Shown: in pieces, positions 39,723-62,493 of the stretch
Position numbering within the stretch: the first letter of the stretch is position 1
Layout of the letters: the number at the start of each line of letters is the position of its first letter
DNA from: Escherichia phage T4
DNA: 64,000 bases
Sequence record: MZ375356.1
Reading direction: 5' to 3' (one strand)
The notes under the pieces: model-generated
Told to the model about the DNA's origin: nothing
Seen by the model: the letters and a program-made list of their open reading frames with translations, nothing else
Databases searched by the model: none
Translations under genes and position numbers: made by a program

Positions 39723-40687
39723 TGTATTCTTTAGAGGAATTTAATAATCAAGCAATAAACGCAGATTTCCAACGTAATAATATGTTTAGCTGCGTTTTTG
39801 CGACAACTCCATCAACTAAAAGCTCTTCGTTGATAAGTTCAATTAGCAACTTTTCTTATAATAACTTGGGCCTAAATTCAGATTGGTTAGGATTAACTCA
39901 AGGTGATATTAATCAGGGAATTACCACGCTAATTACAGCTGGCACACAAAAACTGATAAGAAAATCAGGAGTCAGTAAATATCTTATTGGTGCCATGAGT
40001 CAACGTACAGTTCAAAGTTTATTAGGCTCATTTACAGTTGGTACATATTTAATTGACTTCTTTAACATGGCATATAACTCATCTGGATTGATGATATACT
40101 CTGTAAAAATGCCAGAGAATAGATTATCCTATGAAACTGACTGGAACTATAATTCTCCTAATATTCGTATAACCGGAAGAGAATTAGACCCTTTGGTTAT
40201 TTCATTTAGAATGGATTCAGAAGCTTGTAACTATCGTGCAATGCAAGACTGGGTTAACTCCGTTCAAGACCCAGTAACTGGACTGCGTGCTTTGCCACAA
40301 GATGTCGAGGCAGATATTCAGGTTAATCTTCATTCTCGCAATGGATTACCTCATACTGCGGTGATGTTCACCGGATGCATTCCAATATCAGTGAGCGCTC
40401 CTGAGTTATCATATGATGGAGATAACCAAATAACTACATTTGATGTTACTTTTGCGTACAGAGTGATGCAGGCTGGAGCAGTTGATAGGCAAGCTGCGCT
40501 TGAATGGCTTGAATCTGCTGCTATAAATGGTATTCAAAGCGTTCTCGGAAATAGTGGAGGTGTTACTGGACTATCTAATTCGCTTTCACGACTTAGTAGA
40601 TTAGGGGGAACTGCAGGAAGCATTTCAAACATTAATACTATGACAGGAATTGTCAATTCGCAGAGTAAAATATTAGGAGCAATATAA
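39722..40687 (+). CDS. 54: baseplate tail-tube initiator gp54
   Basis: 321-aa ORF at the T4 gp54 position. Confidence 0.9.
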   Translation: MYSLEEFNNQAINADFQRNNMFSCVFATTPSTKSSSLISSISNFSYNNLGLNSDWLGLTQGDINQGITTLITAGTQKLIRKSGVSKYLIGAMSQRTVQSLLGSFTVGTYLIDFFNMAYNSSGLMIYSVKMPENRLSYETDWNYNSPNIRITGRELDPLVISFRMDSEACNYRAMQDWVNSVQDPVTGLRALPQDVEADIQVNLHSRNGLPHTAVMFTGCIPISVSAPELSYDGDNQITTFDVTFAYRVMQAGAVDRQAALEWLESAAINGIQSVLGNSGGVTGLSNSLSRLSRLGGTAGSISNINTMTGIVNSQSKILGAI

Positions 40688-40690
40688 CAA

Positions 40691-40716
40691 TGGGGACCGA
40701 AAGGTCCCCATATTTT
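40691..40716. terminator. hairpin terminator between convergent genes 54 and the alt-upstream ORF
   Basis: tggggacc-GAAA-ggtcccca followed by TATTTTTATTT. Confidence 0.7.
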
Positions 40717-41006
40717 TATTTACGGAATGAAATGAAAGCAGCAACTGAAGCAACTAAACTGTCTTCAATATAAACTTCAATTTTTACAGGAGCTTCTGAC
40801 TCAAATTTACCTGTTACTACACCCTGAAAAATACTTTCAGTCTGTTCTGGCTTTGAAAAATTTTCAGAAGGAAAAATTCCGAACTTTTTATCTGTTCCAA
40901 AAATTTTGATAAATTCATCGTAAACCGCTTCGTTAAAAGCATTATCAGCAGGAATAACGCCTTCAACTACAAGTTCTTGACCTAAAAAGCGTAAAGAAGA
41001 TTTCAT
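40716..41006 (-). CDS. hypothetical 96-aa protein (positional equivalent of T4 alt.-3)
   Basis: ORF with a Shine-Dalgarno GAGGAA upstream; directly downstream of an early promoter. Confidence 0.65.
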   Translation of the reverse strand: MKSSLRFLGQELVVEGVIPADNAFNEAVYDEFIKIFGTDKKFGIFPSENFSKPEQTESIFQGVVTGKFESEAPVKIEVYIEDSLVASVAAFISFRK

Positions 41007-41037
41007 TTTGTGTTCCTCATGTTATGTTAGTAAGACT

Positions 41038-41067
41038 ACTATAACACAACACGAGGGACTTGTAAAC
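41038..41067 (-). promoter_or_regulatory. T4 early promoter (GTTTAC-N18-TATAGT)
   Basis: Minus strand reads GTTTACAAGTCCCTCGTGTTGTGTTATAGT; part of a 53-bp block duplicated at 54227-54279. Confidence 0.7.
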
Positions 41068-41424
41068 TACATTTTGAACTTTTTAGTACGCGTAATAGGC
41101 ATGCGTCGATTTTATACTGTTTCATTGTTTGAAGAGCAGTATCAAAAACAGCATTAATGACACCAATTGGATTTCCACCCAAGTTTTTAAGCTTAACTAA
41201 TGATAGTTTCTCATTAACACCTATCATTACGATATGCATCATTTTATCGCCTGGTTTAACGTTTTATTTGTATCACCGCCAGAGGTGTATGTACAAAATC
41301 TAAATCCAGGAAGTACACTTTCTTCACCGGCTTGAATAGCAAAAATTTGTGGTATTTTATGCTTAGGATTTAAGTTAACAACCGGCGCCGAAGCGCCGTC
41401 AAATAATTCTGTAATAAGTTCCAT
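41039..41424 (-). pseudogene. tandem paralogue of the Alt N-terminus split across two frames (T4 alt.-2/alt.-1 equivalents)
   Basis: ORF 41239-41424 (MELITELFDGASAPV...CTYTSGGDTN) and ORF 41039-41242 (MMHIV...QYKIDACLLRVLKS) are collinear with Alt residues 1-125 but in different frames. Confidence 0.7.
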
Positions 41425-41427
41425 GAT

Positions 41428-43476
41428 TTATCCTTGAACGAACTTGTAAGGCATGTTTGCAATATCTATGCAAGACGCAATAATTCCAAGAGATGATTCT
41501 ACTTTCTGTTTAACATTTGATGAAACAAATGATGCAAAGTCAACTCTATCTTCTATATCACCTGTCATTGTAACCAATTCACCAGTTTCCATTAAATGGT
41601 CTCCGTCATAGATTACCGATTCGGTGAGTTCTTCTGTGGTCATAACTTCAGCTTGAATAAGCTTGTTGTTAGTTTTAACTGTTCCATCATTGTAAGATGC
41701 ATCGGTTATTTTATTAACTTTGACCATTAATCCACGTGGCAAAATGACTTCCATTTCATTTGAAGGCGCTAAACTTCCACCGGGTAAAACAACATTGACC
41801 TTATCAGCCCCAGTAATAACCCATCCAATTCCAACTAAATTATCGCTAGAATTTACAAGTCCTTCATCAGTTTTATCAATAGAAACGCTTAAACGCTTTT
41901 CGTCTGGTAAAACACCTATAGATGAATCAGTCATCCAAGTACCAAAAATATTTGGATATAATGATGTTGACACAAAGTTTCTAAAATAAAAAACTCGATT
42001 TTTTACCATTGCTTCGTATATTGAAGGTAACATTCGTTGTGAACGATACAAAGTAATACCTTTTGGTAATCGTTCACCATTTTTAAAGGCTGAATCTAAA
42101 TTATCAATAGCTTTTTCTATGTCAGATGCTGTCAAAATACTTGTACGCTCATCTGGATTATATAATCCCAAAAGAGCATTATTTATGTCTACATATCCTG
42201 AACCTACGTATTCACGAATTCCGCGTTTTTGCGCTGGTGTGTATTTAGATGAATCTTTATTTTCGACTATAGGATGTAATGACCATCCAGCGGTAAGAGC
42301 ATATCCACGTAATTCTCTTCGAATAATCTTTGTTTTTATTGCATTCCAAGAATTTTGTACTAACTCATTTGCAGCATCTTGGTTTAAATGCGAATGTTTG
42401 TTAATATTTCTTTCAAACCAAGCACCCTTATATTTTTCTAAAGTATCATCGACGATAGAAGCAATAGTTTCTAAGGTTTTTATTGAAGTAATAGATTCTT
42501 TTCGTAATCTTTCTAAAGCTTTATTTTTTATTTCTGCGTTAATAATGGATTCTTTATCTTCAGGAATTATAGAAGCTTCTCTGAATGCCATCCCAGCTGT
42601 AACACTGCTAAGAGCATTCTCTAGTGCAAATCCTGAAGTAGAAATTACCGTTAATTCATTAGAATCAGAAATTAAAGGCGCGTCCGCTGGTTTATTTAAT
42701 TCGGCCGCTGAAGCCTCAAATTTTTGAAACATTGGTGTTTCAAATCTAGAAGATTCCAATGACTGACTTTGCGCAATTGCTCTACGGGAAATTTTAACTT
42801 TAACGATTACAGCTTGGTCAGAACGTTTATCATTTTCTTGCGCAATAGATGCTGCAATTGCCTCATTTTTAGTTACTTGAGCCCCAGTATCTTTATTGAT
42901 ATAAACATCACCGACCTTCGATTCAACTTTAGTAAAGAGCTCGGTACTAATTTCCGGAACTCCTGGAATGTCTTCTAGTGATACATTTTTGCGATGTATA
43001 AGAATATATGCATACTTTTTATCGTAATCCCAGAGTTCCTTAAGAAGGACGTATCTACCACCTGAACGACTACGGATAAGTCTATCAGCAATAACTTGAA
43101 TTTGTCGAGCTTGGCCAGCAGTTTTAGACTTAAGAATACGGAGCATACAGGCATCAATTTTATACTGGCGCATTGTTTGCATTGCAACAGTAAAAACTGA
43201 ATTGATATAATTAATTGGGCTTGGACCAAGACCTTTTAATTTAGCAATTGAACCTTTAGCAGTTAATGTAAAAGGAACAATATGCATCATTTTATCGCCC
43301 ATCTTTAAATCACGATTAGTATCACCTCCAGATGTATAGGTACATAAACGAAAGCCTGGTTGTTCAATTGCATCATCAACATGAACTGAAAAAATTTGCG
43401 GTATTTTCTTCTTTGGATATAAGTTTGTAATTGGAAGAGTAGTATCTTCGTCAAATAATTCTGTAATAAGTTCCAT
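41428..43476 (-). CDS. alt: Alt ADP-ribosyltransferase (capsid-packaged, modifies host RNA polymerase)
   Basis: 682 aa from MELITELFDEDTTLPITNLYPKK. Confidence 0.9.
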   Translation of the reverse strand: MELITELFDEDTTLPITNLYPKKKIPQIFSVHVDDAIEQPGFRLCTYTSGGDTNRDLKMGDKMMHIVPFTLTAKGSIAKLKGLGPSPINYINSVFTVAMQTMRQYKIDACMLRILKSKTAGQARQIQVIADRLIRSRSGGRYVLLKELWDYDKKYAYILIHRKNVSLEDIPGVPEISTELFTKVESKVGDVYINKDTGAQVTKNEAIAASIAQENDKRSDQAVIVKVKISRRAIAQSQSLESSRFETPMFQKFEASAAELNKPADAPLISDSNELTVISTSGFALENALSSVTAGMAFREASIIPEDKESIINAEIKNKALERLRKESITSIKTLETIASIVDDTLEKYKGAWFERNINKHSHLNQDAANELVQNSWNAIKTKIIRRELRGYALTAGWSLHPIVENKDSSKYTPAQKRGIREYVGSGYVDINNALLGLYNPDERTSILTASDIEKAIDNLDSAFKNGERLPKGITLYRSQRMLPSIYEAMVKNRVFYFRNFVSTSLYPNIFGTWMTDSSIGVLPDEKRLSVSIDKTDEGLVNSSDNLVGIGWVITGADKVNVVLPGGSLAPSNEMEVILPRGLMVKVNKITDASYNDGTVKTNNKLIQAEVMTTEELTESVIYDGDHLMETGELVTMTGDIEDRVDFASFVSSNVKQKVESSLGIIASCIDIANMPYKFVQG

Positions 43477-43504
43477 CATATCCTCTCTAGTGTTTATTCT
43501 ATTC

Positions 43505-43512
43505 TATTTATA
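43505..43512 (-). promoter_or_regulatory. T4 late promoter (TATAAATA, minus strand) upstream of alt
   Basis: Reverse complement of forward tatttata; about 30 nt upstream of the alt ATG. Confidence 0.55.
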
Positions 43513-43517
43513 AAATT

Positions 43518-43534
43518 AAAGGCCCGAAGGCCTT
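43518..43534 (-). other. hairpin (aaaggcc-CGAA-ggccttt) between alt and the upstream small ORF
   Basis: Inverted repeat read directly. Confidence 0.5.
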
Positions 43535-43722
43535 TAATAATCTATTGGTAAGAGAGTACGATATATTTCAAACTTTGGACCTTTTTCATAAGCATCAAAT
43601 GTTTCTGTGAATTTATTATAAGCATATGCATCTATAAATTCAATCATGATTTGTGATACAGAAGTAGAAACATCTCCACCTTCTTTTTGAGCCACGACAA
43701 TTGTTTCTAAGTAAGCTTTCAT
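43534..43722 (-). CDS. hypothetical 62-aa protein (positional equivalent of T4 alt.1)
   Basis: ORF between alt and the ligase gene; ATGA overlap with the ligase stop. Confidence 0.6.
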   Translation of the reverse strand: MKAYLETIVVAQKEGGDVSTSVSQIMIEFIDAYAYNKFTETFDAYEKGPKFEIYRTLLPIDY

Positions 43723-45182
43723 AGACCAGTTACCTCATGAAAATCACCAAATACATCTTCGAATGTATTAGCTTTAGTTTTATCTTCACGTAAACGAATC
43801 GCAATCGGAAGAAATAATTTAACGTAATCAGTGCGGCCATCAGATTTTAACCAACCGTTGCATTCGCACTCTAGAATTTTTCCAATATAATAATTTTGGT
43901 TTTCCATAATGCGAGTACGGTCAAGTTCATGCGATTTTACACCGGCTTTATCTTTTAAGCCTGAACCAGCATTTACCTTAATTTTTCCACACTCTGACTC
44001 AAGAATAAATCCACCCGCTTTAGTAGGGTCTTTACGGTGAGGATAAATTCCTACAATTTTTAAATCAACATCAATTACTTCTTTAAATTTATAAAGATTT
44101 TTTGAACGAGCATTTTCCCATAATCCATCGATATTTTTGAGAATAATACCTTCAAGACCTTGGTCAATATACTTTTTATAAATTACCTTAGCTTCATCTA
44201 GGTTATTTACTACCTGGTTTTCAATTAAAATTACTTTATCATATCCAGATGTCATTTGTTCTAGTTTAGAAAAACGTACATCATATTTCAAACGAAATGC
44301 AGGAAGACTGTATATTTCTACCAACGGGACATAATCCCAGACCTGAAACTTCATGCATTGTGCTTCTTTTTCAGAAATGGTTCCCTTTAAAGATTTATTG
44401 GCGATTCCATTAGAAGCAGTACGTGATTCAGCTACTTCGGCGAATTCTTTAGCTTTACTGTTTTCAGGATAAGCATCAAAAAGAAAATCTAGGCCTTCTG
44501 GCTCCTTTTTAACTTGCTCATGGTATACCAATTCGCCATCAATCAACACACCTTCTGGATGAATCTGGCGGGCTTCAGCGGTCATTTTAATTAACTCTTC
44601 CTTAAGAAGATCTAATCCTAGATATTCATTACCAGCTCGTGATAAAAGACGAACATCATCTAATTCATCACCTCTAACTTCAGCAAAACACCGAGCTCCA
44701 TCAGCTTTTAACTGAGCAAAGGCTGGAAATTTGATATTCTTATTAATGCCTTTTTCATCATAAGAACTTGCGAGCATTTGAGGTTGTTCAGGAATTAAAC
44801 CTGGCCAAACTTTGTTTGCAATAGATACTGAAGCACCACATTCAAGGTCTCGCATCATCACTCGACGCAAAACTTCAACATCATCTTTTTTACCATCGGT
44901 GATATATCCAGTTAATTCCTCAATTGCTGCATTTCCAGTCAATTTCCGAGTAGCTAATGTGAATTCAATGAAGTCAAGCATATCGGTAAGAGTCAACATT
45001 CCAAAACTCTGGGTAGCAATACCAGGTTTAGGCCATTTCTTGATATAATACTGTAACCCACGAGAATAAGTCAGACGATATACTCGTTTAAGCAATTCAT
45101 TATCTTTATTCTTTTCAAGAATTGCTTGCTTCTGTTTAGTTGAACCAATAGATGCTATTTCGTTCAGAATTTTAAGAATCAT
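43719..45182 (-). CDS. 30: ATP-dependent DNA ligase
   Basis: 487-aa ORF starting MILKILNEIASIGSTKQKQ; adenylation motif KADGAR. Confidence 0.95.
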   Translation of the reverse strand: MILKILNEIASIGSTKQKQAILEKNKDNELLKRVYRLTYSRGLQYYIKKWPKPGIATQSFGMLTLTDMLDFIEFTLATRKLTGNAAIEELTGYITDGKKDDVEVLRRVMMRDLECGASVSIANKVWPGLIPEQPQMLASSYDEKGINKNIKFPAFAQLKADGARCFAEVRGDELDDVRLLSRAGNEYLGLDLLKEELIKMTAEARQIHPEGVLIDGELVYHEQVKKEPEGLDFLFDAYPENSKAKEFAEVAESRTASNGIANKSLKGTISEKEAQCMKFQVWDYVPLVEIYSLPAFRLKYDVRFSKLEQMTSGYDKVILIENQVVNNLDEAKVIYKKYIDQGLEGIILKNIDGLWENARSKNLYKFKEVIDVDLKIVGIYPHRKDPTKAGGFILESECGKIKVNAGSGLKDKAGVKSHELDRTRIMENQNYYIGKILECECNGWLKSDGRTDYVKLFLPIAIRLREDKTKANTFEDVFGDFHEVTGL

Positions 45183-45448
45183 TGTTCATCCTTTAGAGTT
45201 TGGTTTACAGCTCTATTATAAATCAATTCATCATTAAGCTCAGTCAAAGACCTGTGGTACGTGGTTCTAACTTTATTTCCTTGCATCCAGTGCTTGATAT
45301 AAATGAAACCTTGCTCTACACATTTTTTAAAAATTCGTTCGTCTTTTTGAGCTCGGAATTCTGGATTGCATCTAAAAAATTGATTTACGTGACCGTAATC
45401 ACGTGTAGTATTACCTTCATTTTCATAAATAGTGTGAACAACAAACAT
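45179..45448 (-). CDS. hypothetical 89-aa protein (30.1 position)
   Basis: ORF with ATGA overlap to the ligase gene. Confidence 0.6.
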   Translation of the reverse strand: MFVVHTIYENEGNTTRDYGHVNQFFRCNPEFRAQKDERIFKKCVEQGFIYIKHWMQGNKVRTTYHRSLTELNDELIYNRAVNQTLKDEQ

Positions 45449-45786
45449 TAGAATGCTCCTTGGAAAATATTATCACCACAAGTAGGTCTATTATACAAAT
45501 ACTCTATACCGCCGGGCTTAATATAGTTCCATGTCTGAAACGGATGCGTCTGATATGGATGATATGGATTATAAGGATTAAATCCAGGAGTTCTCCAGGT
45601 AGTGTTCCAAGGAAAAGAATCGTTTTTAATCATCTTTTCAATTACATCTTTTATAGCTTTTTCACTATCAAAACTTTCTTTATTTTCCTTTGGTGAAAAA
45701 AGCTTATTCTCTACATCGTTCCATGTATAAACTCGCTGAGCAGTTTTTGGAATATTGTCACGCTCTCCTCGAGCCATCCAATACAC
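45448..45786 (-). CDS. hypothetical 112-aa protein (30.2 position)
   Basis: ORF; position only. Confidence 0.6.
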   Translation of the reverse strand: MYWMARGERDNIPKTAQRVYTWNDVENKLFSPKENKESFDSEKAIKDVIEKMIKNDSFPWNTTWRTPGFNPYNPYHPYQTHPFQTWNYIKPGGIEYLYNRPTCGDNIFQGAF

Positions 45787-45851
45787 AGGAACACGTAATA
45801 TTTCACTCGCGTGATCGCAGTGGTGAGCGAGATCGTCAATAACAAATTACG

Positions 45852-46097
45852 TTATTTCTCTTTTGCTTTTTTGAACAACTCTTCTTTTGAAGAATCATGA
45901 CTACACATCAGTACTTCTGAGAAAGCACCAGGAAAAAGAGCATTCAAATTAAATTGACGATTTAATAGAGCGTCAATAGAATCACCCAATGCTGTAACAG
46001 CAACAAAATTATAATCTTCTTTTAATTTGTTAATTACACAGAGCATCTTTATATGGAGACAAGTAACGAATAAAATCCGAACGATTGTATTTTTCAA
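45852..46097 (-). CDS. hypothetical 81-codon ORF with a non-ATG (TTG) start; may be spurious or an alternate-frame ORF
   Basis: Overlaps the tail of a longer open frame (46030-46272) in another phase. Confidence 0.3.
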   Translation of the reverse strand: MKNTIVRILFVTCLHIKMLCVINKLKEDYNFVAVTALGDSIDALLNRQFNLNALFPGAFSEVLMCSHDSSKEELFKKAKEK

Positions 46098-46272
46098 TTA
46101 ACTTGACGCCAAGTTCTTCATCACAGTTAAAGAGTTTACCAGGAGAAATAAATTTCTCATCTTGGATCATTTTTAAAATATGTTCTAACGGAAGATTATA
46201 TTTCTGAGCAAAATAAGGAAGGCCTGATTGCCAGCTTAAACATACTCCATCAATATCAGTTAATAGTAGGCT

Positions 46273-46734
46273 TCATAGAGAGTCTCTTAATAGGTTTAAC
46301 ACATCAATAAATTCAGCTTCGGTTAGTATTGTATCATCTTTTGTTAGACCACTAGCAATGCTGTGCTTCAAAACTTTTCCTTTCGAGGCTTGTAATGCAT
46401 CACGAAAGCCCTTGTTTTGAATCGCTGCTTCAAAATATGCATTTGTGTATAATTCTTTCCACGCCGGGGAGTATCTTGAAAACGGAACTCCAAGCCAAAA
46501 GAGGGTCCCACGGTCCTGAGCTCTAGCATAAGACCTTCCAGCTTGTTGGGCGGCAAGCCCGGATAACCCAAATATACGTTGTTGTTCAACATTTTTCACC
46601 TTACACCCTTGGAGGAATCCTTCAAGACCTCCAAATTGAATACCATCCATAACGAAAGGCCATTGGGCGAAATTACTTAATGCACATGATGGCCACCTAA
46701 AATTGCTTCTAATCTCTAACTCAGACATTTTCAA
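46273..46734 (-). CDS. NADAR/YbiA-like (DUF1768) domain protein
   Basis: 153-aa ORF; LSNFAQWPFVMDGIQFGGLEGFLQGCKV resembles the N-terminal NADAR signature (E. coli YbiA FSNFAAWPIKVDGKTW...EHYFQAQKF); assignment is by eye, not by search. Confidence 0.5.
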   Translation of the reverse strand: MKMSELEIRSNFRWPSCALSNFAQWPFVMDGIQFGGLEGFLQGCKVKNVEQQRIFGLSGLAAQQAGRSYARAQDRGTLFWLGVPFSRYSPAWKELYTNAYFEAAIQNKGFRDALQASKGKVLKHSIASGLTKDDTILTEAEFIDVLNLLRDSL

Positions 46735-46927
46735 TGCTTATAATTTCAACATCAGCCCAATGACCATAGCAAGGAAGACGAAATTCAACTGGCCAGTTAG
46801 GGTCCTTTTCTAATATAATAGACTCAACTTGTGGTTCTTCGTGTTCATCAGTATACGGATTTTTATCTGTTACTTTATATGTGACCTTAATGTACTGAAT
46901 TCCAAAAATCTTATTAATTATATTCAT
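46721..46927 (-). CDS. hypothetical 68-aa protein
   Basis: ORF; translationally coupled to neighbours. Confidence 0.55.
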   Translation of the reverse strand: MNIINKIFGIQYIKVTYKVTDKNPYTDEHEEPQVESIILEKDPNWPVEFRLPCYGHWADVEIISIENV

Positions 46928-47121
46928 ACTAATTCCTTTAATCCGTAGATAGGAGATAATTCATCACCCATACGAAGGTCTTCATTTCCATCTACCCAGG
47001 AAACAATATAAGCCTCTTTTATTTGAATACCACTCCATTTAAATGGAGGTAGAACCTTAGAAATTAATCCAGGTATACCAACTCCCTTTAATTCAACAGT
47101 TTGACCTAAAAAGAATTTCAT
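46924..47121 (-). CDS. hypothetical 65-aa protein
   Basis: ORF; TAATG overlap with the upstream gene. Confidence 0.55.
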   Translation of the reverse strand: MKFFLGQTVELKGVGIPGLISKVLPPFKWSGIQIKEAYIVSWVDGNEDLRMGDELSPIYGLKELV

Positions 47122-47401
47122 TAGAACCTCATCTGAAAACCGTGCGATTTAACATTACCGCCGCCAATATCAGAAATGTTAATTTCACGCGCAATTGAAG
47201 GGTCAATGTCAATTTCACGATTGAGTTTAGTGATAGCTAAAGTATCACGCCCATTTACAGTACGGAACTCTAAAGGACAAACCACATCAACGTAGTTTTA
47301 ATCGATTCGCTAGTAAGTTGCAAATGTGCAGGAAGGTCTTTAGGTGCCTTTGAGAAAACCACTTCACAGAAATTTTTGCGGGTATCAAAATAAGTAGTCA
47401 T
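47121..47401 (-). pseudogene. hypothetical ~93-codon gene split across two frames
   Basis: ATG at 47401 gives MTTYFDTRKNFCEVVF...SIKTT then a stop; a second frame continues ...VVCPLEFRTVNGRDTLAITKLNREIDIDPS... to the stop at 47121; the junction lies in an A-run. Confidence 0.45.
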
Positions 47402-47422
47402 AAACATAATATTTTCCTCAGT

Positions 47423-47438
47423 AAGGGGCTGAAGCCCC
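47423..47438 (-). other. hairpin (aggggc-TGAA-gcccct)
   Basis: Inverted repeat read directly. Confidence 0.5.
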
Positions 47439-47448
47439 TCATTTTATT

Positions 47449-47812
47449 TTAAATATCAAATTCATTAAGAACTACATCAAAGATTGCTTCAAGATGCTCA
47501 GGTAGCTCTGTTACTCAGAATATGACGAATCCAAGTTTTAACTAAGAGTTTACGATTAGCACCATTCCAGCAAGGATGAGTCCCTAAATCGCGTTGGCGG
47601 AAATCATCATCCAGAGCGATTTTGAAGTTGGAACCTTTCATCGTGATTGAAACCGTGATACCGTTTTCAAATCGCATATAAACGTAGTTAGGAGTCATAT
47701 ACTGTTCAATTTCGCATACTGATCCATTTTGATGTTTCCAGAGGCAAATAGTATCAATAGAACCTGCAATACCATTAGAAACATATTTACGTTCAAAGTT
47801 AATGTAGTTCAT
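47449..47812 (-). CDS. hypothetical protein; 104-aa ORF (47498-47812) with a possible out-of-frame C-terminal continuation
   Basis: After the stop at 47498 the +1 frame reads VTELPEHLEAIFDVVLNEFDI to a stop at 47449. Confidence 0.45.
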
Positions 47813-47994
47813 TTTTATTCTCCGAGATGTTTAATTGCGGTACAGGTATAATATCATATCCTGTACCAAAGTAAACAATTATTTTACTACTTTCCAATGC
47901 TGCATGTCAAGTTTACCAACTTTTTTCATCTTCTCAATTAAGCGTTCTGCACGTTGGCGAGCTAACATAATGCCATTCGCCTAATTCATTTTGT

Positions 47995-48207
47995 TCAATT
48001 TTTCCAACGAACTGTATTCAATTCATAAATCCAACCAGTAAAGAAATTATGAACTTGAATTGTAAAGGTGAAATCTGTTCCCATACCTTCTGTTGTTTCT
48101 ACTTCAATAATATCACCTTCAACTGCCATTAAGAACCACATAGTTTCATCATATTTACCATTGAAGCATTTAGTTTTAACTGCAGCGTTCAGATTAATCG
48201 TTTTCAT
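47995..48207 (-). CDS. hypothetical 70-aa protein
   Basis: ORF; position only. Confidence 0.55.
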   Translation of the reverse strand: MKTINLNAAVKTKCFNGKYDETMWFLMAVEGDIIEVETTEGMGTDFTFTIQVHNFFTGWIYELNTVRWKN

Positions 48208-48282
48208 TTTATTCTCCTTTGTTTGTGTAAGATAATACTATCACAAAGGAACTATACTGTAAACAACTTTGTGCAATCTTTG

Positions 48283-48310
48283 GAAAATAAAAAAGGACTC
48301 CCGAAGGAGT
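48283..48310 (-). terminator. rho-independent terminator after the 30.9-position gene
   Basis: Minus strand reads ggactcc-TTCG-ggagtcc followed by TTTTTATTTT. Confidence 0.75.
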
Positions 48311-48317
48311 CCTCAAC

Positions 48318-48494
48318 TTATGCTTTCTGCTTACCAAAACGAGAAGCATCATCTCGAAGAACCGCACGTGCTCGGCGCATGATCTTCTCAACAGTTTGAT
48401 TGATACGAGAGTTCGACCCACGCTTGTAGCCAGCGCGTTTAGAATCACCAACTTTCTTTTCAACTGCTTTCTTTGCTTTAGCTTGTTTTGCCAT
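48318..48494 (-). CDS. small Lys/Arg-rich protein (30.9 position)
   Basis: ATG-initiated MAKQAKAKKAVEKKVGDSKRAGYKRG...; the track extends to 48536 using a non-ATG start. Confidence 0.55.
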   Translation of the reverse strand: MAKQAKAKKAVEKKVGDSKRAGYKRGSNSRINQTVEKIMRRARAVLRDDASRFGKQKA

Positions 48495-48738
48495 TATAAA
48501 TTCTCTTTTAAATGAAAATGCAGGACTTATTGGCATTGCCTGCGCAAGCCCTCAAGGGGAACATAGGTTTTTGGATATTTAACGACCAGGATAACCATAA
48601 ACCCGTCATCATTCACATTCAAGAGGTACACCGTAAAACTGTCGGGGTCTTAAAACTATAATGATTCGCAAATCATTAATCAGACAGTTCGACGGCTCCT
48701 CGATTTAGCTCACACTAAGGCAGTGAATCTCCAATAAA

Positions 48739-48987
48739 TTACTTCAGTGTTACCACAAAGTGACGAACTGCTTTTCGTGCAGCAGAAGCCAGAGGCTTAG
48801 CATATTTAAGTTCATCTTTTTCCTGAAGCTCAGCAGCTAATGCAGTTTGAGCAGGATTCAGATGTTTGAAATAACGCAGGATTTCAAGAGCTTCGGCTTC
48901 AACATCAATAGATGCGCCATAGTTTTCGTGACCATTATTCCATGCGTTTCGTTGCAGTTCAAGAGCGTGTTGTAATTGTTTAATCAT
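48739..48987 (-). CDS. rIII: rIII lysis-inhibition accessory protein
   Basis: 82-aa ORF starting MIKQLQHALELQRNAWNNGHENYG. Confidence 0.88.
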   Translation of the reverse strand: MIKQLQHALELQRNAWNNGHENYGASIDVEAEALEILRYFKHLNPAQTALAAELQEKDELKYAKPLASAARKAVRHFVVTLK

Positions 48988-49134
48988 TTAAAAATTCTCG
49001 TTAGAGATTAAAACTCGGTAGTCACGTTCTTCTGAATTTCATCTTCTTTCGACAGATCTCTCAGTTGTAGACTACCACATAGAATTGTTCGGTTAACTTA
49101 TTATTCCGACACCCAATTCATATTATTATTTATA

Positions 49135-49470
49135 TCACTTATAAAGACACGGAATAGCTTTATAGTGACAGGTAACGAATTTTTGTTTAATTTCTTTTGG
49201 CTGCTTAAGACCCAGAGCTACAAAAGGATGCGGAACATTTCGAATTTGACCAACTGGAAGAGAAGTCAAATCACCAACTTCGCAGAAACCTTCAGGAACA
49301 TCAGGACCGACAGAGTGAACTACACACAGTTCAGGAACTTCACCTTGAACACGTTTACCGATAATAAGTCCTGATTCTGTAACTTCTTCATCACCGGCTT
49401 GTGCAGGTTCAGAAACTAAAATAACATATTCACCGACAGCACGAATTGGTAGCTGTTGTACTTCAGACAT
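49135..49470 (-). CDS. 31: co-chaperonin gp31 (GroES analogue for capsid folding)
   Basis: 111-aa ORF starting [19 protein letters not shown]. Confidence 0.92.
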
Positions 49471-49523
49471 CGTTTTTCCTTTTTGTTAACAGATGAATTA
49501 ATAACAAATAGTTCTTAAAGCAT

Positions 49524-49832
49524 TTATTTACCAATAAATTGAAGCAAATGCTCAACTTTCATACCATTAACGGAAATCAATTTGTCAATAGAAAAACCTC
49601 GCCACGCACCAAGCTCAACATCAAATACTGGAATCATGTCAGTAGATTCTTTCCGAGTAGATTCAGTCAATTTGCCAGTTTGCATGGTTGGCATAAAGTC
49701 TGCATCACGAGTACCTTTCATAGTACGAATAGTACCATCAGACTTTTCAAAAACTACGTTTGAAACACCCATGGACAATTTAGTTTTCAAAATTTCACGA
49801 ATTGCTACTTTCTGCTCAGTTGTCAGTTTCAT
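49524..49832 (-). CDS. hypothetical 102-aa protein (31.1 position)
   Basis: ORF; position only. Confidence 0.6.
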   Translation of the reverse strand: MKLTTEQKVAIREILKTKLSMGVSNVVFEKSDGTIRTMKGTRDADFMPTMQTGKLTESTRKESTDMIPVFDVELGAWRGFSIDKLISVNGMKVEHLLQFIGK

Positions 49833-50078
49833 TTATTTACCTATTACAGTTTTAATATGAGTTGTTCCACGTTCTTTAAGGGTGGAAAGTAATTTTTGGC
49901 ATTTTTCTAAATCAGATTTCCAACTATATGGTCTATCAATACAAACCCAATTTGTCTTATAATACTGTTTCCATTTAGAGAAAAAATATTTCTTATACTC
50001 TACAGCAAATGAGATGTTCTCGTTAGAATAAGAACTAATTGCTGTGAGTTTACCAAACGAAATTTCATTATTCACCAC
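49833..50078 (-). CDS. hypothetical 81-aa protein (31.2 position)
   Basis: ORF; position only. Confidence 0.55.
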   Translation of the reverse strand: MVNNEISFGKLTAISSYSNENISFAVEYKKYFFSKWKQYYKTNWVCIDRPYSWKSDLEKCQKLLSTLKERGTTHIKTVIGK

Positions 50079-50649
50079 AGAATTCGTTGATATTTTCCCA
50101 GTTTAACTTATTCAAGTTTTTCTTAGGAACATTAAACACTTCAATACCTGCATTTCGCAGAATATCATCCCAACCGGGTTTATTTTTGTCGTATGTTTCA
50201 CAATAAACCAGCTTTTTAATACCAGATTGAGCTATCGCTTTTGCGCAATCTGGACAAGGAGAAAGTGTTACATACATAGTAGCACCTTCAATAGAAGAAC
50301 CATTTCGTGCAGCAAACAAAATTGCATTTAGTTCAGCATGAATTTCATTTTTAGATGACCATTCCGAGTGAGCACTACGATGTTCTTTCGCCAAAACAAA
50401 ACGATCAGTTGAACCAAATGATACGCATTCAGGCTTATGACCTTGAATGATAGCATGTTTAGGCTTATTCAACAACCATCCTTGCTCAGCAGCATAATCA
50501 CAACAGTTCACACCCCCTGCGGGTGAACCATTATACCCAGTAGAAATAATACGTCCATTCTTTTCAATTACTGCTCCTACCTTCCAGGAGCAACATTTTG
50601 ATTCCTGCGATACTAAATATGCAATTTGAAGTACTGTACTCGCTTTCAT
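50068..50649 (-). CDS. cd: dCMP deaminase
   Basis: 193-aa ORF; zinc-binding deaminase motifs HAELNAI and PCPDCAKAI. Confidence 0.92.
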   Translation of the reverse strand: MKASTVLQIAYLVSQESKCCSWKVGAVIEKNGRIISTGYNGSPAGGVNCCDYAAEQGWLLNKPKHAIIQGHKPECVSFGSTDRFVLAKEHRSAHSEWSSKNEIHAELNAILFAARNGSSIEGATMYVTLSPCPDCAKAIAQSGIKKLVYCETYDKNKPGWDDILRNAGIEVFNVPKKNLNKLNWENINEFCGE

Positions 50650-50984
50650 TTCATAATCACCAGATAAGCAGATTTAGCAGTTTCAACACGATAAATTTCG
50701 TGACGAAGTTTAGTTATACTTTTAATAACAGAACTAATTATATTCTGCCCATCTTTAAAGCGGTTTTTCTTATCAATAAAAACTGCGCCAGTCATCTTTT
50801 TGTGAAGCTCAACTGGATACTTCGTCACAATAATAGCATCATACACAGAAGGATGAATACTATTCACCAGAGTATCATTCATTAAAGTTATTCTAATGAA
50901 CTGTGCTGTTTCAGAATCAAGCGCTCTATGATCGCCAGTATCATTTTCAAGACAATTATCAATTATATCAGTTAAATTCATCAT
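50646..50984 (-). CDS. hypothetical 112-aa protein (cd.1 position)
   Basis: ORF; ATGA coupling. Confidence 0.55.
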   Translation of the reverse strand: MMNLTDIIDNCLENDTGDHRALDSETAQFIRITLMNDTLVNSIHPSVYDAIIVTKYPVELHKKMTGAVFIDKKNRFKDGQNIISSVIKSITKLRHEIYRVETAKSAYLVIMK

Positions 50985-51220
50985 AGTACGCCATACACCC
51001 TTTGTGCTTCAACTAATCCATCAAAATCCAGTTTAAGATGCGATATTTGATCGCCATCACCTGGATTCACAATTACTAATACTGAACGAGGAGTTTCGGT
51101 AATAACACGAACCGATGTTTCAGGAAATCGTTCAGAAACCTTATTTACTAATTCCTGCGCAAATAGTTTAACTTTTTCTTGGAATTCTTTAACAGTAATC
51201 GGTTTTTCACTTAGCAACAT
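50981..51220 (-). CDS. hypothetical 79-aa protein (cd.2 position)
   Basis: ORF; position only. Confidence 0.55.
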   Translation of the reverse strand: MLLSEKPITVKEFQEKVKLFAQELVNKVSERFPETSVRVITETPRSVLVIVNPGDGDQISHLKLDFDGLVEAQRVYGVL

Positions 51221-51282
51221 TTTGTTTTCCTCATTTGTTTTGGTAGAGCTATAATATCACAACTCTACCGTAAAGTAAACCA

Positions 51283-51498
51283 TTAAATCGCTTTGAATTC
51301 CGCAGTTTGAGATTCAAAGCGAATATCGCCTTTGATAACAAGCTCAGCATCAAGACCAAATACGACAATGATATGCGCGGAACCTGGATACAGTGTAATG
51401 GCAATAGAATCCACCTGGTCTGGAAGCAAAGTGTTCAATACATGAGTCACTTGAGCATGGATTCGAAGCTCAGCTGCGTTATCAAGTTTTTCAAACAT
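51283..51498 (-). CDS. hypothetical 71-aa protein (cd.3 position)
   Basis: ORF; position only. Confidence 0.5.
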   Translation of the reverse strand: MFEKLDNAAELRIHAQVTHVLNTLLPDQVDSIAITLYPGSAHIIVVFGLDAELVIKGDIRFESQTAEFKAI

Positions 51499-51556
51499 AT
51501 TATTAGCGATTTTGGCTACACTACTTCTACGATTTTAGAGTAAGTCGGAAACATAT

Positions 51557-51747
51557 TTACCTCACATAATTTTCTTCAAGCCAATCAATAACATCCAACG
51601 CATTATCAAAAGTTGAACCATCTACTCTGTCTTCTGTTTCATAATCAAGAACATCTGCCTACTCTTCCGTCAACAATAGGCCATAGACAAAATAGATATT
51701 TCTTTTCTTTTTCAATTTTATCACAAAGACGATAAATCTTTTCTAGG

Positions 51748-51755
<8 letters not shown>
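51557..51755 (-). pseudogene. hypothetical ~66-codon gene split across two frames
   Basis: ATG at 51755 gives MNNLEKIYRLCDKIEKEKKYLFCLWPIVDGRVG... then a stop; the +1 frame continues DVLDYETEDRVDGSTFDNALDVIDWLEENYVR to 51557. Confidence 0.4.
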
Positions 51756-53074
<1,319 letters not shown>

Positions 53075-53078
<4 letters not shown>

Positions 53079-53374
53079 TTACATTTATCCTCTTTTAGCT
53101 CTTGACGATAATAACATATCATAGTTTTCTGGTCATGTACATATCGTTTTACATCATTAAGCCAAATACGAAATTCCTGAGAATCTTCAAATGGCATACC
53201 GACCCAGGCTTTACCATCAATAACTTTAACTTGCCAAGATAGTTTAGCTTCATCATATGACTTTATTTGCACAGGCCAATTAGGATGAACTGTTTCTTTC
53301 TTTACTTCTAGAGGCTTTGTCGAACAACCAACTAGAAGACCAATAGATAATATTACTGCTGATAGTTTAATCAT
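53075..53374 (-). CDS. pseT.2: outer-membrane lipoprotein, o-spanin (Rz1 equivalent)
   Basis: Signal peptide plus lipobox MIKLSAVILSIGLLVGC; ATGA-coupled downstream of a TM/coiled-coil partner. Confidence 0.75.
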
Positions 53375-53724
53375 TTAGAAAGGTCCTGGATGTCTTCTGC
53401 GAACTTGTTGAAGGAGTTGTTGATTTGTTTTTCAACCAATCCTGGCTTATGAGCCACCACATCCGCCTTCTTTGCATCTTTGCGCAGTTTTTCATTTTCA
53501 CGCTCAATAGCAGCAATTGCCTCACGATTTTTATTATTCATCGCATCAATATAATTATACTGAATTCGCAAATTATTTAATGCTAAGGCGTTTTCATTGG
53601 CCGTTTTTGTAATTTCAGTAACTGATGTTTCTAATCTTTCTACCTTATGTTTTAAAATAATAGATGTTCCGCCAAATGCTATTACAAGTAATAGCAATCC
53701 AGCTGTAAAATTACTTACATGCAT
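53371..53724 (-). CDS. pseT.3: inner-membrane i-spanin (Rz equivalent)
   Basis: N-terminal TM helix (AGLLLLVIAFGGTSIIL) followed by a coiled-coil-like periplasmic domain. Confidence 0.75.
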   Translation of the reverse strand: MHVSNFTAGLLLLVIAFGGTSIILKHKVERLETSVTEITKTANENALALNNLRIQYNYIDAMNNKNREAIAAIERENEKLRKDAKKADVVAHKPGLVEKQINNSFNKFAEDIQDLSK

Positions 53725-54221
53725 AAAGTTTTAATAACCTCTACAATATCGTCTTGAGAAAGACCGTTAATTAAAATATGATGTTCAGCTGGAGATTTAG
53801 AAATTTTAAAGCATGCCTCAACATCTTCTGCCATATCCGATGCACTACGATTTGGATTACTAATACCAAGGCGATGTTTTCCCGTCAAAGGATTAACGAT
53901 GATATAGCATTTGCAGCTATTGATATGAACATTGGGTTGAGTCTGATTAATGAACACTTCACAATCATACTTAGCAAGTTGATTTTCTAAAAAGACTTTC
54001 ATCTCTTCAACCGCATCAGGAAGCATATCACGGGCTTGCTCAAGACGACGATTTCGATATTCTTTAATGGTCGTTTTCCGCTTGACTTGCTTAGCTAAAT
54101 CTTTCTTAAGATCAGTGATATATCCAACTCGACGATTTCCTTTGAATACAGAAATCCCATCTGTAGTATCACCGTATGCTTCAACGACCATTTCAGTAGT
54201 AATAAGTTGTAAATCCATCAT
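53715..54221 (-). CDS. alc: Alc (blocks host transcription elongation on cytosine-containing DNA)
   Basis: 168-codon ORF beginning MMDLQLITTEMVVEAYGD (167 aa from the second Met); directly downstream of an early promoter. Confidence 0.85.
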   Translation of the reverse strand: MMDLQLITTEMVVEAYGDTTDGISVFKGNRRVGYITDLKKDLAKQVKRKTTIKEYRNRRLEQARDMLPDAVEEMKVFLENQLAKYDCEVFINQTQPNVHINSCKCYIIVNPLTGKHRLGISNPNRSASDMAEDVEACFKISKSPAEHHILINGLSQDDIVEVIKTLCM

Positions 54222-54249
54222 AAAGTCCTCATGTTATGTCAGTAAGACT

Positions 54250-54279
54250 ACTATAACACAACACGAGGGACTTGTAAAC
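54250..54279 (-). promoter_or_regulatory. T4 early promoter (GTTTAC-N18-TATAGT) for alc
   Basis: Identical in sequence to the promoter at 41038-41067. Confidence 0.7.
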
Positions 54280-54282
54280 AAC

Positions 54283-55870
<1,588 letters not shown>

Positions 55871-61485: not shown

Positions 61486-62493
61486 CATTATGTTCAGATA
61501 AGGTCGTTAATCTTACCCCGGAATTATATCCAGCTGCATGTCACCATGCAGAGCAGACTATATCTCCAACTTGTTAAAGCAAGTTGTCTATCGTTTCGAG
61601 TCACTTGACCCTACTCCCCAAAGGGATAGTCGTTAGGCATTTATGTAGAACCAATTCCATTTATCAGATTTTACACGATAAGTAACTAATCCAGACGAAA
61701 TTTTAAAATGTCTAGCTGCATCTGCTGCACAATCAAAAATAACCCCATCACATGAAATCTTTTTAATATTACTAGGCTTTTTACCTTTCATCTTTTCTGA
61801 TATTTTAGATTTAGTTATGTCTGAATGCTTATGATTAAAGAATGAATTATTTTCACCTGAACGATTTCTGCATTTACTACAAGTATAAGCAGAAGTTTGT
61901 ATGCGAACACCGCACTTACAAAACTTATGGGTTTCTGGATTCCAACGCCCGTTTTTACTTCCGGGTTTACTGTAAAGAGCTTTCCGACCATCAGGTCCAA
62001 GTTTAAGCATCTTAGCTTTAACAGTTTCAGAACGTTTCTTAATAATTTCTTCTTTTAATGGATGCGTAGAACATGTATCACCAAACGTTGCATCAATATT
62101 GTATCCATTAATTTTAGAAAGCTCTTTAATCCAAAAATTTTCTCGTTCAATAATCAAATCTTTCTCATATGGAATTTCTTCCAAAATAGAACATAAACAC
62201 ATTACCATGTTTGTTAAAAGACCTCTGAAGTTTTATAGAAGAATGGCATCCTTTTTCTAAATCTTTAAAATGCCTCTTCCATCTCTTTTCAAAATCTTTA
62301 GCACTTCCTACATATACTTTATTGTTTAAAGTATTTTTAATCTGATAAATTCCGCTTTTCATAAATACCTCTTTAAATATAGAAGTATTTATTAAAGGGC
62401 AGTCCTACAATTTAGCACGGGATTGTCTACTAGAGAGGTTCCCCGTTTAGATAGATTACAAGTATAAGTCACCTTATACTCAGGCCTCAATTA
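61486..62493 (-). mobile_element. group I self-splicing intron in td (1008 nt here) carrying I-TevI
   Basis: Minus strand: exon ...CTTGGGT | TAATTGAGGCCTGAGTATAAGGTGAC... to ...ACATAATG | CTACCG; the 5' sequence is recognised as the td intron. Confidence 0.9.
61633..62362 (-). pseudogene. I-TevI: GIY-YIG homing endonuclease I-TevI, frame-disrupted
   Basis: N-terminal ORF MKSGIYQIKNTLNNKVYVGSAKDFEKRWKRH...NKHGNVF then a frame change; the C-terminal ORF carries the zinc finger CKCGVRIQTSAYTCSKC and DNA-binding domain; 730 nt is not a multiple of 3. Confidence 0.8.

Follow-up and report, generated by a model that had tools for sequence, protein, structure and literature searches.

The window analysed here, a stretch of 64,000 nucleotides from Escherichia phage T4 (MZ375356.1), contains two genes that are preceded by almost the same short block of DNA. 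The first, alt.-3 (40716..41006, minus strand, ATG at 41006-41004), is non-essential and encodes a 96-residue DUF5498 protein; the second, alc (53715..54218, minus strand, ATG at 54218-54216), encodes the 167-residue inhibitor of host transcription. The block upstream of alt.-3 (copy A, 41014..41067) lies at site A, between the alt.-2 remnant and alt.-3, and that upstream of alc (copy B, 54226..54279) lies at site B, between rnlA (gene 63) and alc; at both sites the cassette starts 0-5 nt past the stop codon of the upstream gene. The two copies are on the minus strand and form direct repeats with a spacing of 13,212 bp. Their common core is 54 nt long, running from GTTTAC to GAGGA, with one mismatch at core position 40, which is A in copy A and G in copy B (T/C on the plus strand); a repeat search of the window adds three further upstream bases, giving 57 nt at 96% identity (41014-41070 / 54226-54282). 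An earlier note on this DNA had described blocks of 53 bp (41015-41067 and 54227-54279) with a single T/C difference, fused to two different early genes; a direct match on the minus strand bears this out, the neighbouring genes being alt.-3 and alc.

The chance expectation of such a match is 0.00 (100 dinucleotide-preserving shuffles), and the pair is the longest dispersed repeat of high identity in the 64 kb, the runner-up being 31 nt. Outside the core, the flanks on either side are unrelated between the two copies. A duplication reaching into the coding sequence was considered and rejected, as Alt.-3 and Alc give no protein alignment; since the two proteins lack similarity, the duplicated thing is a regulatory unit and not a gene. 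The 2.5 kb around the cassettes are 100% identical to T4T (HM137666) and other T4 isolates. Taken as a bare repeat, without the hairpin described below, this is unremarkable in a genome that has been studied so thoroughly.

Both copies carry the same promoter and ribosome-binding elements in the same order. In copy A the -35 element GTTTAC occupies 41067-41062, the -10 element TATAGT with its preceding TGn 41043-41038, and the Shine-Dalgarno sequence GAGGA 41018-41014; in copy B, the -35, -10 and Shine-Dalgarno elements are found at 54279-54274, 54255-54250 and 54230-54226 (all minus strand). Motif searches at both sites agree with the arrangement reported earlier, GTTTAC-N18-TATAGT followed by a leader and GAGGA, which is equivalent to TTTACA-N17-TATAGT with 10/12 consensus matches and a TG ahead of the -10. 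The DNA upstream of the promoter is A/T-rich (AAAAAGTTCAAAATGTA at site A, AAAAATTATAAAAAATTTAT at site B), and the distance from GAGGA to the ATG is 7 nt in each case. These motifs support the prediction that the cassette consists of a sigma-70-type T4 early promoter, a leader and a Shine-Dalgarno sequence. The T4 early promoters have been characterized as ‘uber’ UP/-35/TGn/-10 promoters (Hinton 2010, PMC2988021). The cassette shares with the canonical members (PMC2988021) the GTTTAC(A) -35, the 18-nt spacer (17 when counted from TTTACA), the TGn motif, TATAGT/TATAAT and the A/T-rich upstream region; it differs from them in that unrelated T4 early promoter-leaders are 55-70% identical, whereas copies A and B are 98% identical, the normally unconstrained spacer included.

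No promoter is annotated at either site in the T4 records AF158101, HM137666 and MT984581, and the literature examined yielded no T4 start-site map, no early-promoter hairpin at alc, and no start-site, read-through or translation results for either site. Both promoters are reportedly predicted in the early-promoter list of Miller et al. 2003, and the repeat or the hairpin may have been noted there before, or in Liebig and Rüger 1989. Two more early-type promoters, GTTTAC-N17/18-TATTAT, are located at 51280 and 47876 (minus strand). They feature perfect inverted repeats of 7-8 bp around the -10 (CGGTAGAG...CTCTACC and GGTACAGG...CCTGTACC), which end 10-17 nt short of the Shine-Dalgarno sequence.

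In a T4 time course, alt.-3 and alc are both classified as early RNA and early protein (PMC9697503 supplements), consistent with the co-regulation that the earlier note had proposed. The genes just upstream of site A, alt.-1 and alt.-2, belong to the middle RNA class (PMC9697503 supplements); the contrast with the early RNA of alt.-3 fits an independent early start at site A. Between alt.-3 and the convergent gene 54 there is a GC-rich, terminator-like 9-bp hairpin (ATGGGGACC...GGTCCCCAT, 40690-40711), likely to be the 3' end of the alt.-3 transcript; its plus strand carries a run of T, and it probably acts as a terminator in both directions.

The region upstream of site A is variable among related phages. 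T4 retains, in alt.-1 and alt.-2 (window 41070-43480), what is left of a second alt paralog whose full length is 2058 nt. This paralog is intact in T2, T6, G28, Kha5h, IME339, UGKSEcP2, KMB39 and YwIITB1, is a remnant in F26, pSe_SNUABM_01, HMD-9 and SYGD1 as it is in T4, and is absent in ECML-134, which has a single alt. A 31-nt repeat (41397-41427 / 43449-43479) marks both alt starts in T4.

A further property, absent from the earlier note, is that the spacer of the promoter can base-pair with the leader and the Shine-Dalgarno sequence, which makes the cassette a long, imperfect palindrome. Core positions 12-25 (CCTCGTGTTGTGTT, comprising spacer and the -10's first base) form the main stem with positions 40-53 (AACATAACATGAGG, leader and Shine-Dalgarno sequence), and an inner 4-bp stem, AGTA/TACT, with a GTCT loop holds the remainder of the -10 and the expected start site. 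In copy A, the 5' arm, a segment of spacer that includes the anti-Shine-Dalgarno CCTC, is located at 41043..41056, and the 3' arm, 5' UTR that includes the Shine-Dalgarno GAGG, at 41015..41028. In copy B, the same 5' arm in the promoter spacer is at 54255..54268 and the 3' arm (GACATAACATGAGG, 5' UTR and Shine-Dalgarno sequence) is at 54227..54240; all four arms are on the minus strand. This complementarity probably explains why the repeated unit extends from the spacer and stops exactly at the Shine-Dalgarno sequence.

Folded as RNA, the 54-mer reaches -22.0 kcal/mol (z = -5.4), and folded as DNA -10.9 kcal/mol (z = -4.7), with 0/200 shuffles as good in either case. The same hairpin is dominant in 126 nt of genomic context (z = -3.7 at site A, -4.0 at site B; 0/200 shuffles each), and the predicted fold pairs GAGG with CCUC at a probability of about 1. 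I-TevI in the td intron, near 62362 (minus strand), served as a positive control: its known hairpin, which sequesters the Shine-Dalgarno sequence and AUG, is recovered by this folding. The leaders initiated at the cassette promoters, when folded by themselves, are without structure, less so even than their shuffles (z = +1.1 and +1.8 for folding energy). A promoter-born transcript is expected to start at about core positions 35-39, downstream of the 5' arm (12-25); because the start site lies 3' of that arm, any transcript from the cassette promoter lacks it. RNA entering from upstream has both arms, so that its GAGG is predicted to be paired with CCUC.

An Rfam scan of 40500-55000 gave no match at either cassette. 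The same scan placed a sub-threshold hit to Atu_C8, a Rhizobiales sRNA, at 48279-48362 on the minus strand (31 bits against a gathering threshold of 50, E = 0.005), which is probably due to chance.

Within the genus Tequatrovirus the hairpin is retained in all 21 of 21 cassette variants, at -16 to -23 kcal/mol, and the Shine-Dalgarno sequence is paired at a probability of about 1 in 20 of them and of 0.89 in the remaining one. This retention is weak support for the structure, because the 3' arm is invariant and the 5'-arm substitutions are not clearly gentler than random (mean ddG of 2.70, compared with 2.89 for random transitions and 3.54 for all random substitutions). Two-sided compensatory changes were not found within the genus, and the only departure from the invariant 3' arm is the G40A change private to T4. 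The A at this position (core 40, window 41028) is present at T4 site A only, among 17 genomes and extra metagenomic copies, the base being G elsewhere; it converts a U.G wobble atop the main stem into U-A.

Stronger evidence comes from other genera. The region upstream of alc has the same layout in four other genera, with GTTTACA, an arm that begins with the anti-Shine-Dalgarno, the -10 and start in the loop and an arm ending in the Shine-Dalgarno sequence. Stems are given here for three of them: TCTCCGTTTTTG / CAAAAACGGAGA in Karamvirus (CkP1, z = -5.1), TCTCCGTTTAGTT / AACTAAACGGAGA in Gelderlandvirus (UTK0003, z = -4.1) and TCCTCATCAG / CTGATGAGGA in Jiaodavirus (RoM12a and Kpn17-11, z = -3.0 and -3.8). 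The sequences of these stems differ, and every position is a standard pair. The stems were compared pair by pair with a script: between Karamvirus and Gelderlandvirus, where the comparison is unambiguous, nine pairs are identical, three are changed on both sides and none is changed on one side only, while counts against T4 depend on the register chosen and should be read with caution. A MAFFT alignment of the alc leaders of the five genera places the arms in different registers and is not a structural alignment. The cross-genus comparison of sequences gives strong support for a hairpin at alc that is conserved with compensatory change.

At alt.-3 the picture is more varied. In Kanagawavirus PEi26 (AP014715), the promoter spacer (GAATGAACG) can pair with alt.-3 codons 2-4 (CGTTCATTC), giving a hairpin of -32 kcal/mol (z = -4.7) that encloses the -10, the Shine-Dalgarno sequence and the AUG. 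Karamvirus has a weaker version of this spacer pairing at alt.-3 (z = -2.2). A hairpin masking the Shine-Dalgarno sequence is absent upstream of alc in Mosigvirus and upstream of alt.-3 in Mosigvirus, Marfavirus and Gaprivervirus; the design is not universal. The Mosigvirus promoter-leaders (alt.-3 of AV112 and alc of SHSML-52-1) have a small hairpin inside the spacer in place of the masking stem. In Gaprivervirus VR20 (NC_028894) and EAWsc9 (PQ341120), a 234-nt ORF resembling N-terminal Alc lies directly upstream of alc and replaces the cassette.

These comparisons bear on the possibility that the cassette is a plain duplicated module of early promoter and ribosome-binding site, whose palindrome is fortuitous or has a role in the DNA itself, such as in promoter opening or strength or as a cruciform. 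The promoters at 51280 and 47876, whose inverted repeats around the -10 do not include the Shine-Dalgarno sequence, suggest that palindromy is associated with promoters generally, and palindromes around the -10 may be a general, unexplained trait of T4 early promoters; the substitutions within Tequatrovirus, which show no bias toward preserving structure, are also in keeping with such a role. It does not predict, however, that at alc in five genera the 3' arm ends in the Shine-Dalgarno sequence and the 5' arm begins with the anti-Shine-Dalgarno, in stems of unrelated sequence, nor the almost invariable pairing of the Shine-Dalgarno sequence among the 21 Tequatrovirus variants. We regard this explanation as unlikely.

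The hairpin is stable and sits exactly at a gene boundary, after the upstream stop codon, as might be expected of an element for processing or stability of the upstream message, such as a protector of its 3' end, an RNase III-like site or an attenuator setting alc and alt.-3 apart from the rnlA and alt transcripts. In related phages, moreover, the promoter-early stem-loop (PeSL) cassettes join an early promoter with a stem-loop that has been proposed as a terminator (see below). The stem lacks a following U-tract at both T4 sites and in the other genera, and is therefore not an intrinsic terminator; stems of 9-14 bp, as in the other genera, are short for RNase III. Such a role also leaves unexplained why the Shine-Dalgarno sequence should be the constant partner in the pairing, and we consider it decidedly improbable. 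At both loci, no terminator-like site separates the cassette from the upstream gene on the minus strand.

An arrangement of translational coupling can also be envisaged, in which alc and alt.-3 would be translated on polycistronic RNA only when a ribosome terminating upstream melts the stem. The stop codons, 0-5 nt before the -35, are about 11-16 nt before the 5' arm, and a ribosome could reach the first pairs; the distance is nevertheless marginal for unwinding a stem of 14 bp. The embedded strong promoter would already supply an open transcript, and in T4 the reading frame that precedes site A, alt.-2, has decayed to a remnant. Coupling of this kind seems to us hardly credible. The same geometry counts to some extent against masking, in that a ribosome terminating at the upstream stop might partly open the stem. 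The processing, coupling and DNA-level explanations all account for the pairing of the Shine-Dalgarno sequence in five genera less well than does masking of the ribosome-binding site in read-through RNA.

The distribution of the cassette was examined with a 63-nt query, which found 997 places in 499 phage records; all the records listed were T4-like phages and all those retrieved were Tequatrovirus. Genomes carry the cassette twice, at fixed orthologous positions, the exceptions being partial records and one genome with three copies. The third copy, in vB_EcoM-G28 (NC_054916; cassettes at 4140 and 4491 of the extracted locus), results from a 351-bp tandem duplication that spans the 3' end of rnlA, the cassette and the 5' part of alc, leaving a truncated alc ORF ahead of the full alc.

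Both copies were extracted from 17 genomes, and an IMG/VR scan added eight loci to the comparative set. In the 17 genomes, variation is limited to core positions 11-34; positions 35-54, comprising the start region, the leader and the Shine-Dalgarno sequence, are identical in all copies but T4 site A. Copies from the same genome differ at 2.12 positions on average, whereas random pairing between genomes gives 2.83 +/- 0.18 (p = 0.0002). Some rare variants are found at both sites in a given genome and almost nowhere else: T19C in UGKSEcP2 and in YwIITB1, T33A in SYGD1, and G32A with C34T in IME339. G28 has G29A and G32A at both loci, yet both of these variants are common elsewhere. There are also locus-specific haplotypes, namely T11/T15/A16 at site A only (five genomes) and C27 at site B only (four genomes), so that homogenisation is incomplete. 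Beyond Tequatrovirus, the identity of the A and B paralogs in Mosigvirus is 83%, while T4 and Mosigvirus orthologs are 73% and 65% identical; each of the Mosigvirus alt.-3 and alc promoter-leaders is nearer its paralog than its T4 ortholog.

These sequence patterns point to occasional ectopic gene conversion which, on top of purifying selection, would keep the copies alike. The alc copy is more likely to be the donor, we infer, because alc has the hairpin-promoter design in four other genera. The minimum homology for T4 recombination, as reportedly found by Singer et al. in 1982, is about 50 bp, and the repeat of about 54 bp is close to that limit.

The earlier note had regarded the repeat as a substrate for homologous recombination and for deletion of the intervening 13 kb. 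The former holds to the extent that short gene-conversion patches appear, while the deletion finds no counterpart: chimeric queries for the deletion junction (rnlA 3' end-cassette-alt.-3) and for the reciprocal junction (alt.-2-cassette-alc) were not spanned at a single place in any of 499 Tequatrovirus records. The 13-kb interval carries alt, gene 30 (DNA ligase), 30.1-30.9, rIII, gene 31, cd, pseT and alc. Genes 30 and 31 of T4 are essential by classical genetics, so a 13-kb deletion could not survive as phage, and a 13-kb duplication would exceed the T4 headful; for these reasons neither recombinant product should survive. The repeat is thus a substrate for short conversion patches and not for viable rearrangements.

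Repeated cassettes of a related kind, the PeSLs, are known from T4-type phages, including the PST/T4 pair, and recombine into mini-circles (Arbiol et al. 2010, PMC2839356; Comeau et al. 2014, PMC4122927). As defined by Comeau et al. (PMC4122927), a PeSL has an early promoter followed by the Shine-Dalgarno sequence and start codon of the downstream gene, with a stem-loop just upstream; the PST/T4 early-promoter consensus used in the PeSL work is TTTACW-N17-TAYWAT (PMC2839356, PMC4122927). The T4 cassette likewise combines a repeated early promoter, a Shine-Dalgarno sequence, an ATG and a stem-loop, with promoter, Shine-Dalgarno sequence and start codon in the same order, and in both systems the repeats are substrates for homologous exchange. 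In PeSLs, however, the stem-loop is upstream of the promoter, whereas the main stem of the T4 cassette encloses the -10 and the start site and includes the Shine-Dalgarno sequence. Upstream of site A there is a small stem (41088-41106), within the alt.-2 remnant; site B has nothing comparable. PeSLs are also present in many copies per genome, clustered in hyperplastic regions with insertions and deletions, in contrast to the two copies of the T4 cassette, which occupy conserved loci in nearly all of the 499 records, with no excision or insertion products among the records searched for junctions.

This comparison allows a further explanation to be weighed, namely that the cassette is a mobile element of the PeSL type, whose main role is that of a portable homology patch for shuffling, deleting and inserting DNA between copies. 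The mini-circles formed by PeSLs, the exchange of sequence between copies A and B, and the position of site A beside the variable region where the second alt paralog is intact, a remnant or absent are all compatible with it. The small and fixed copy number, the absence of both recombinant junctions, the essential genes 30 and 31 in the interval and the enclosure of the promoter by the stem-loop make it very improbable.

The preferred reading is that the cassette is a compact promoter-in-hairpin module for early-only translation. RNA polymerase would start about 7 nt after TATAGT, inside the hairpin loop. The promoter-born RNA would lack the 5' arm, leaving the ribosome-binding site open and allowing alc and alt.-3 to be translated straight after infection. 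Read-through RNA, coming from rnlA in the case of alc and from alt and the remnants in the case of alt.-3, would carry both arms and fold, over about 18 bp, into a hairpin with GAGG hidden inside, so that these longer, later transcripts would yield little translation of the downstream gene. As a result, Alc and Alt.-3 would be made only while the early promoter is active. The two paralogous copies would be kept near-identical by selection on promoter and hairpin, together with ectopic conversion by the phage recombination system. The repeat, the promoter motifs, the hairpin with its thermodynamic significance and cross-genus compensation, the rare variants common to both paralogs and the lack of recombinant junctions are computational results; the start site, the read-through, the translational masking and the biological purpose are what we infer from them, and we hold the scheme as a whole to be rather probable.

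T4 is the reference system for the timing of phage gene expression. If the proposal is correct, production of Alc, which terminates host transcription, and of Alt.-3, mutants of which evade the CmdTAC defence, would be restricted to the immediate-early burst despite continued transcription from upstream. The design would be compact and portable, with a promoter, a ribosome-binding site and an insulator against read-through in 54 nt. The additions to the bare repeat, namely a promoter hairpin predicted to mask the ribosome-binding site, its cross-genus compensation and the apparent conversion between copies, are in our view moderately interesting.

With regard to the maintenance of the two copies, the cassette resembles known cases of concerted evolution of dispersed repeats in that paralogs are closer than orthologs and rare variants are shared by both loci of one genome. 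Ectopic gene conversion is exemplified by bacterial rRNA operons and tuf genes. The T4 case differs in that the tract is only about 54 bp and, as discussed above, homogenisation is incomplete. It offers a tractable case for the minimum length of an ectopic gene-conversion tract in a highly recombinogenic virus and, if the conversion is real, would show a viral regulatory element undergoing concerted evolution in nature.

The closest likeness in regulation is to the T4 genes e, soc, 49 and I-TevI, whose long early transcripts have the ribosome-binding site shut away in a hairpin, with a late promoter inside the structure yielding an accessible message (PMC3014915). That 2010 review does not list alc or alt.-3 as examples. 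As in these genes, the Shine-Dalgarno sequence of the cassettes is predicted to be buried in a helix that can form solely in RNA started upstream, the position of the promoter leaves its own transcript without the 5' arm, and the size of the stem is similar. The stable helix and the open promoter-born transcript, both predicted, are accompanied by conservation of the hairpin with compensatory change. The difference is in the inner promoter: that of e, soc, 49 and I-TevI is late (TATAAATA), and it is early translation that is blocked, whereas the cassette promoter is early and sigma-70-type, and its hairpin would block translation from later or longer transcripts. The cassette may on this basis be placed in the T4 class of transcript-specific translational control, with the timing reversed. 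A wider proposal, that an early promoter within a hairpin is a general device by which T4-type phages restrict translation of certain genes (alc, alt.-3) to RNA initiated at that promoter, mirroring the late-promoter hairpins and with its copies held in step by conversion over about 54 bp, is put forward tentatively, as a possibility that we rate a little short of even. If the hairpin acts as proposed, the late-promoter trick of T4 would have an early-promoter counterpart, conserved at alc in at least five genera counting Tequatrovirus.
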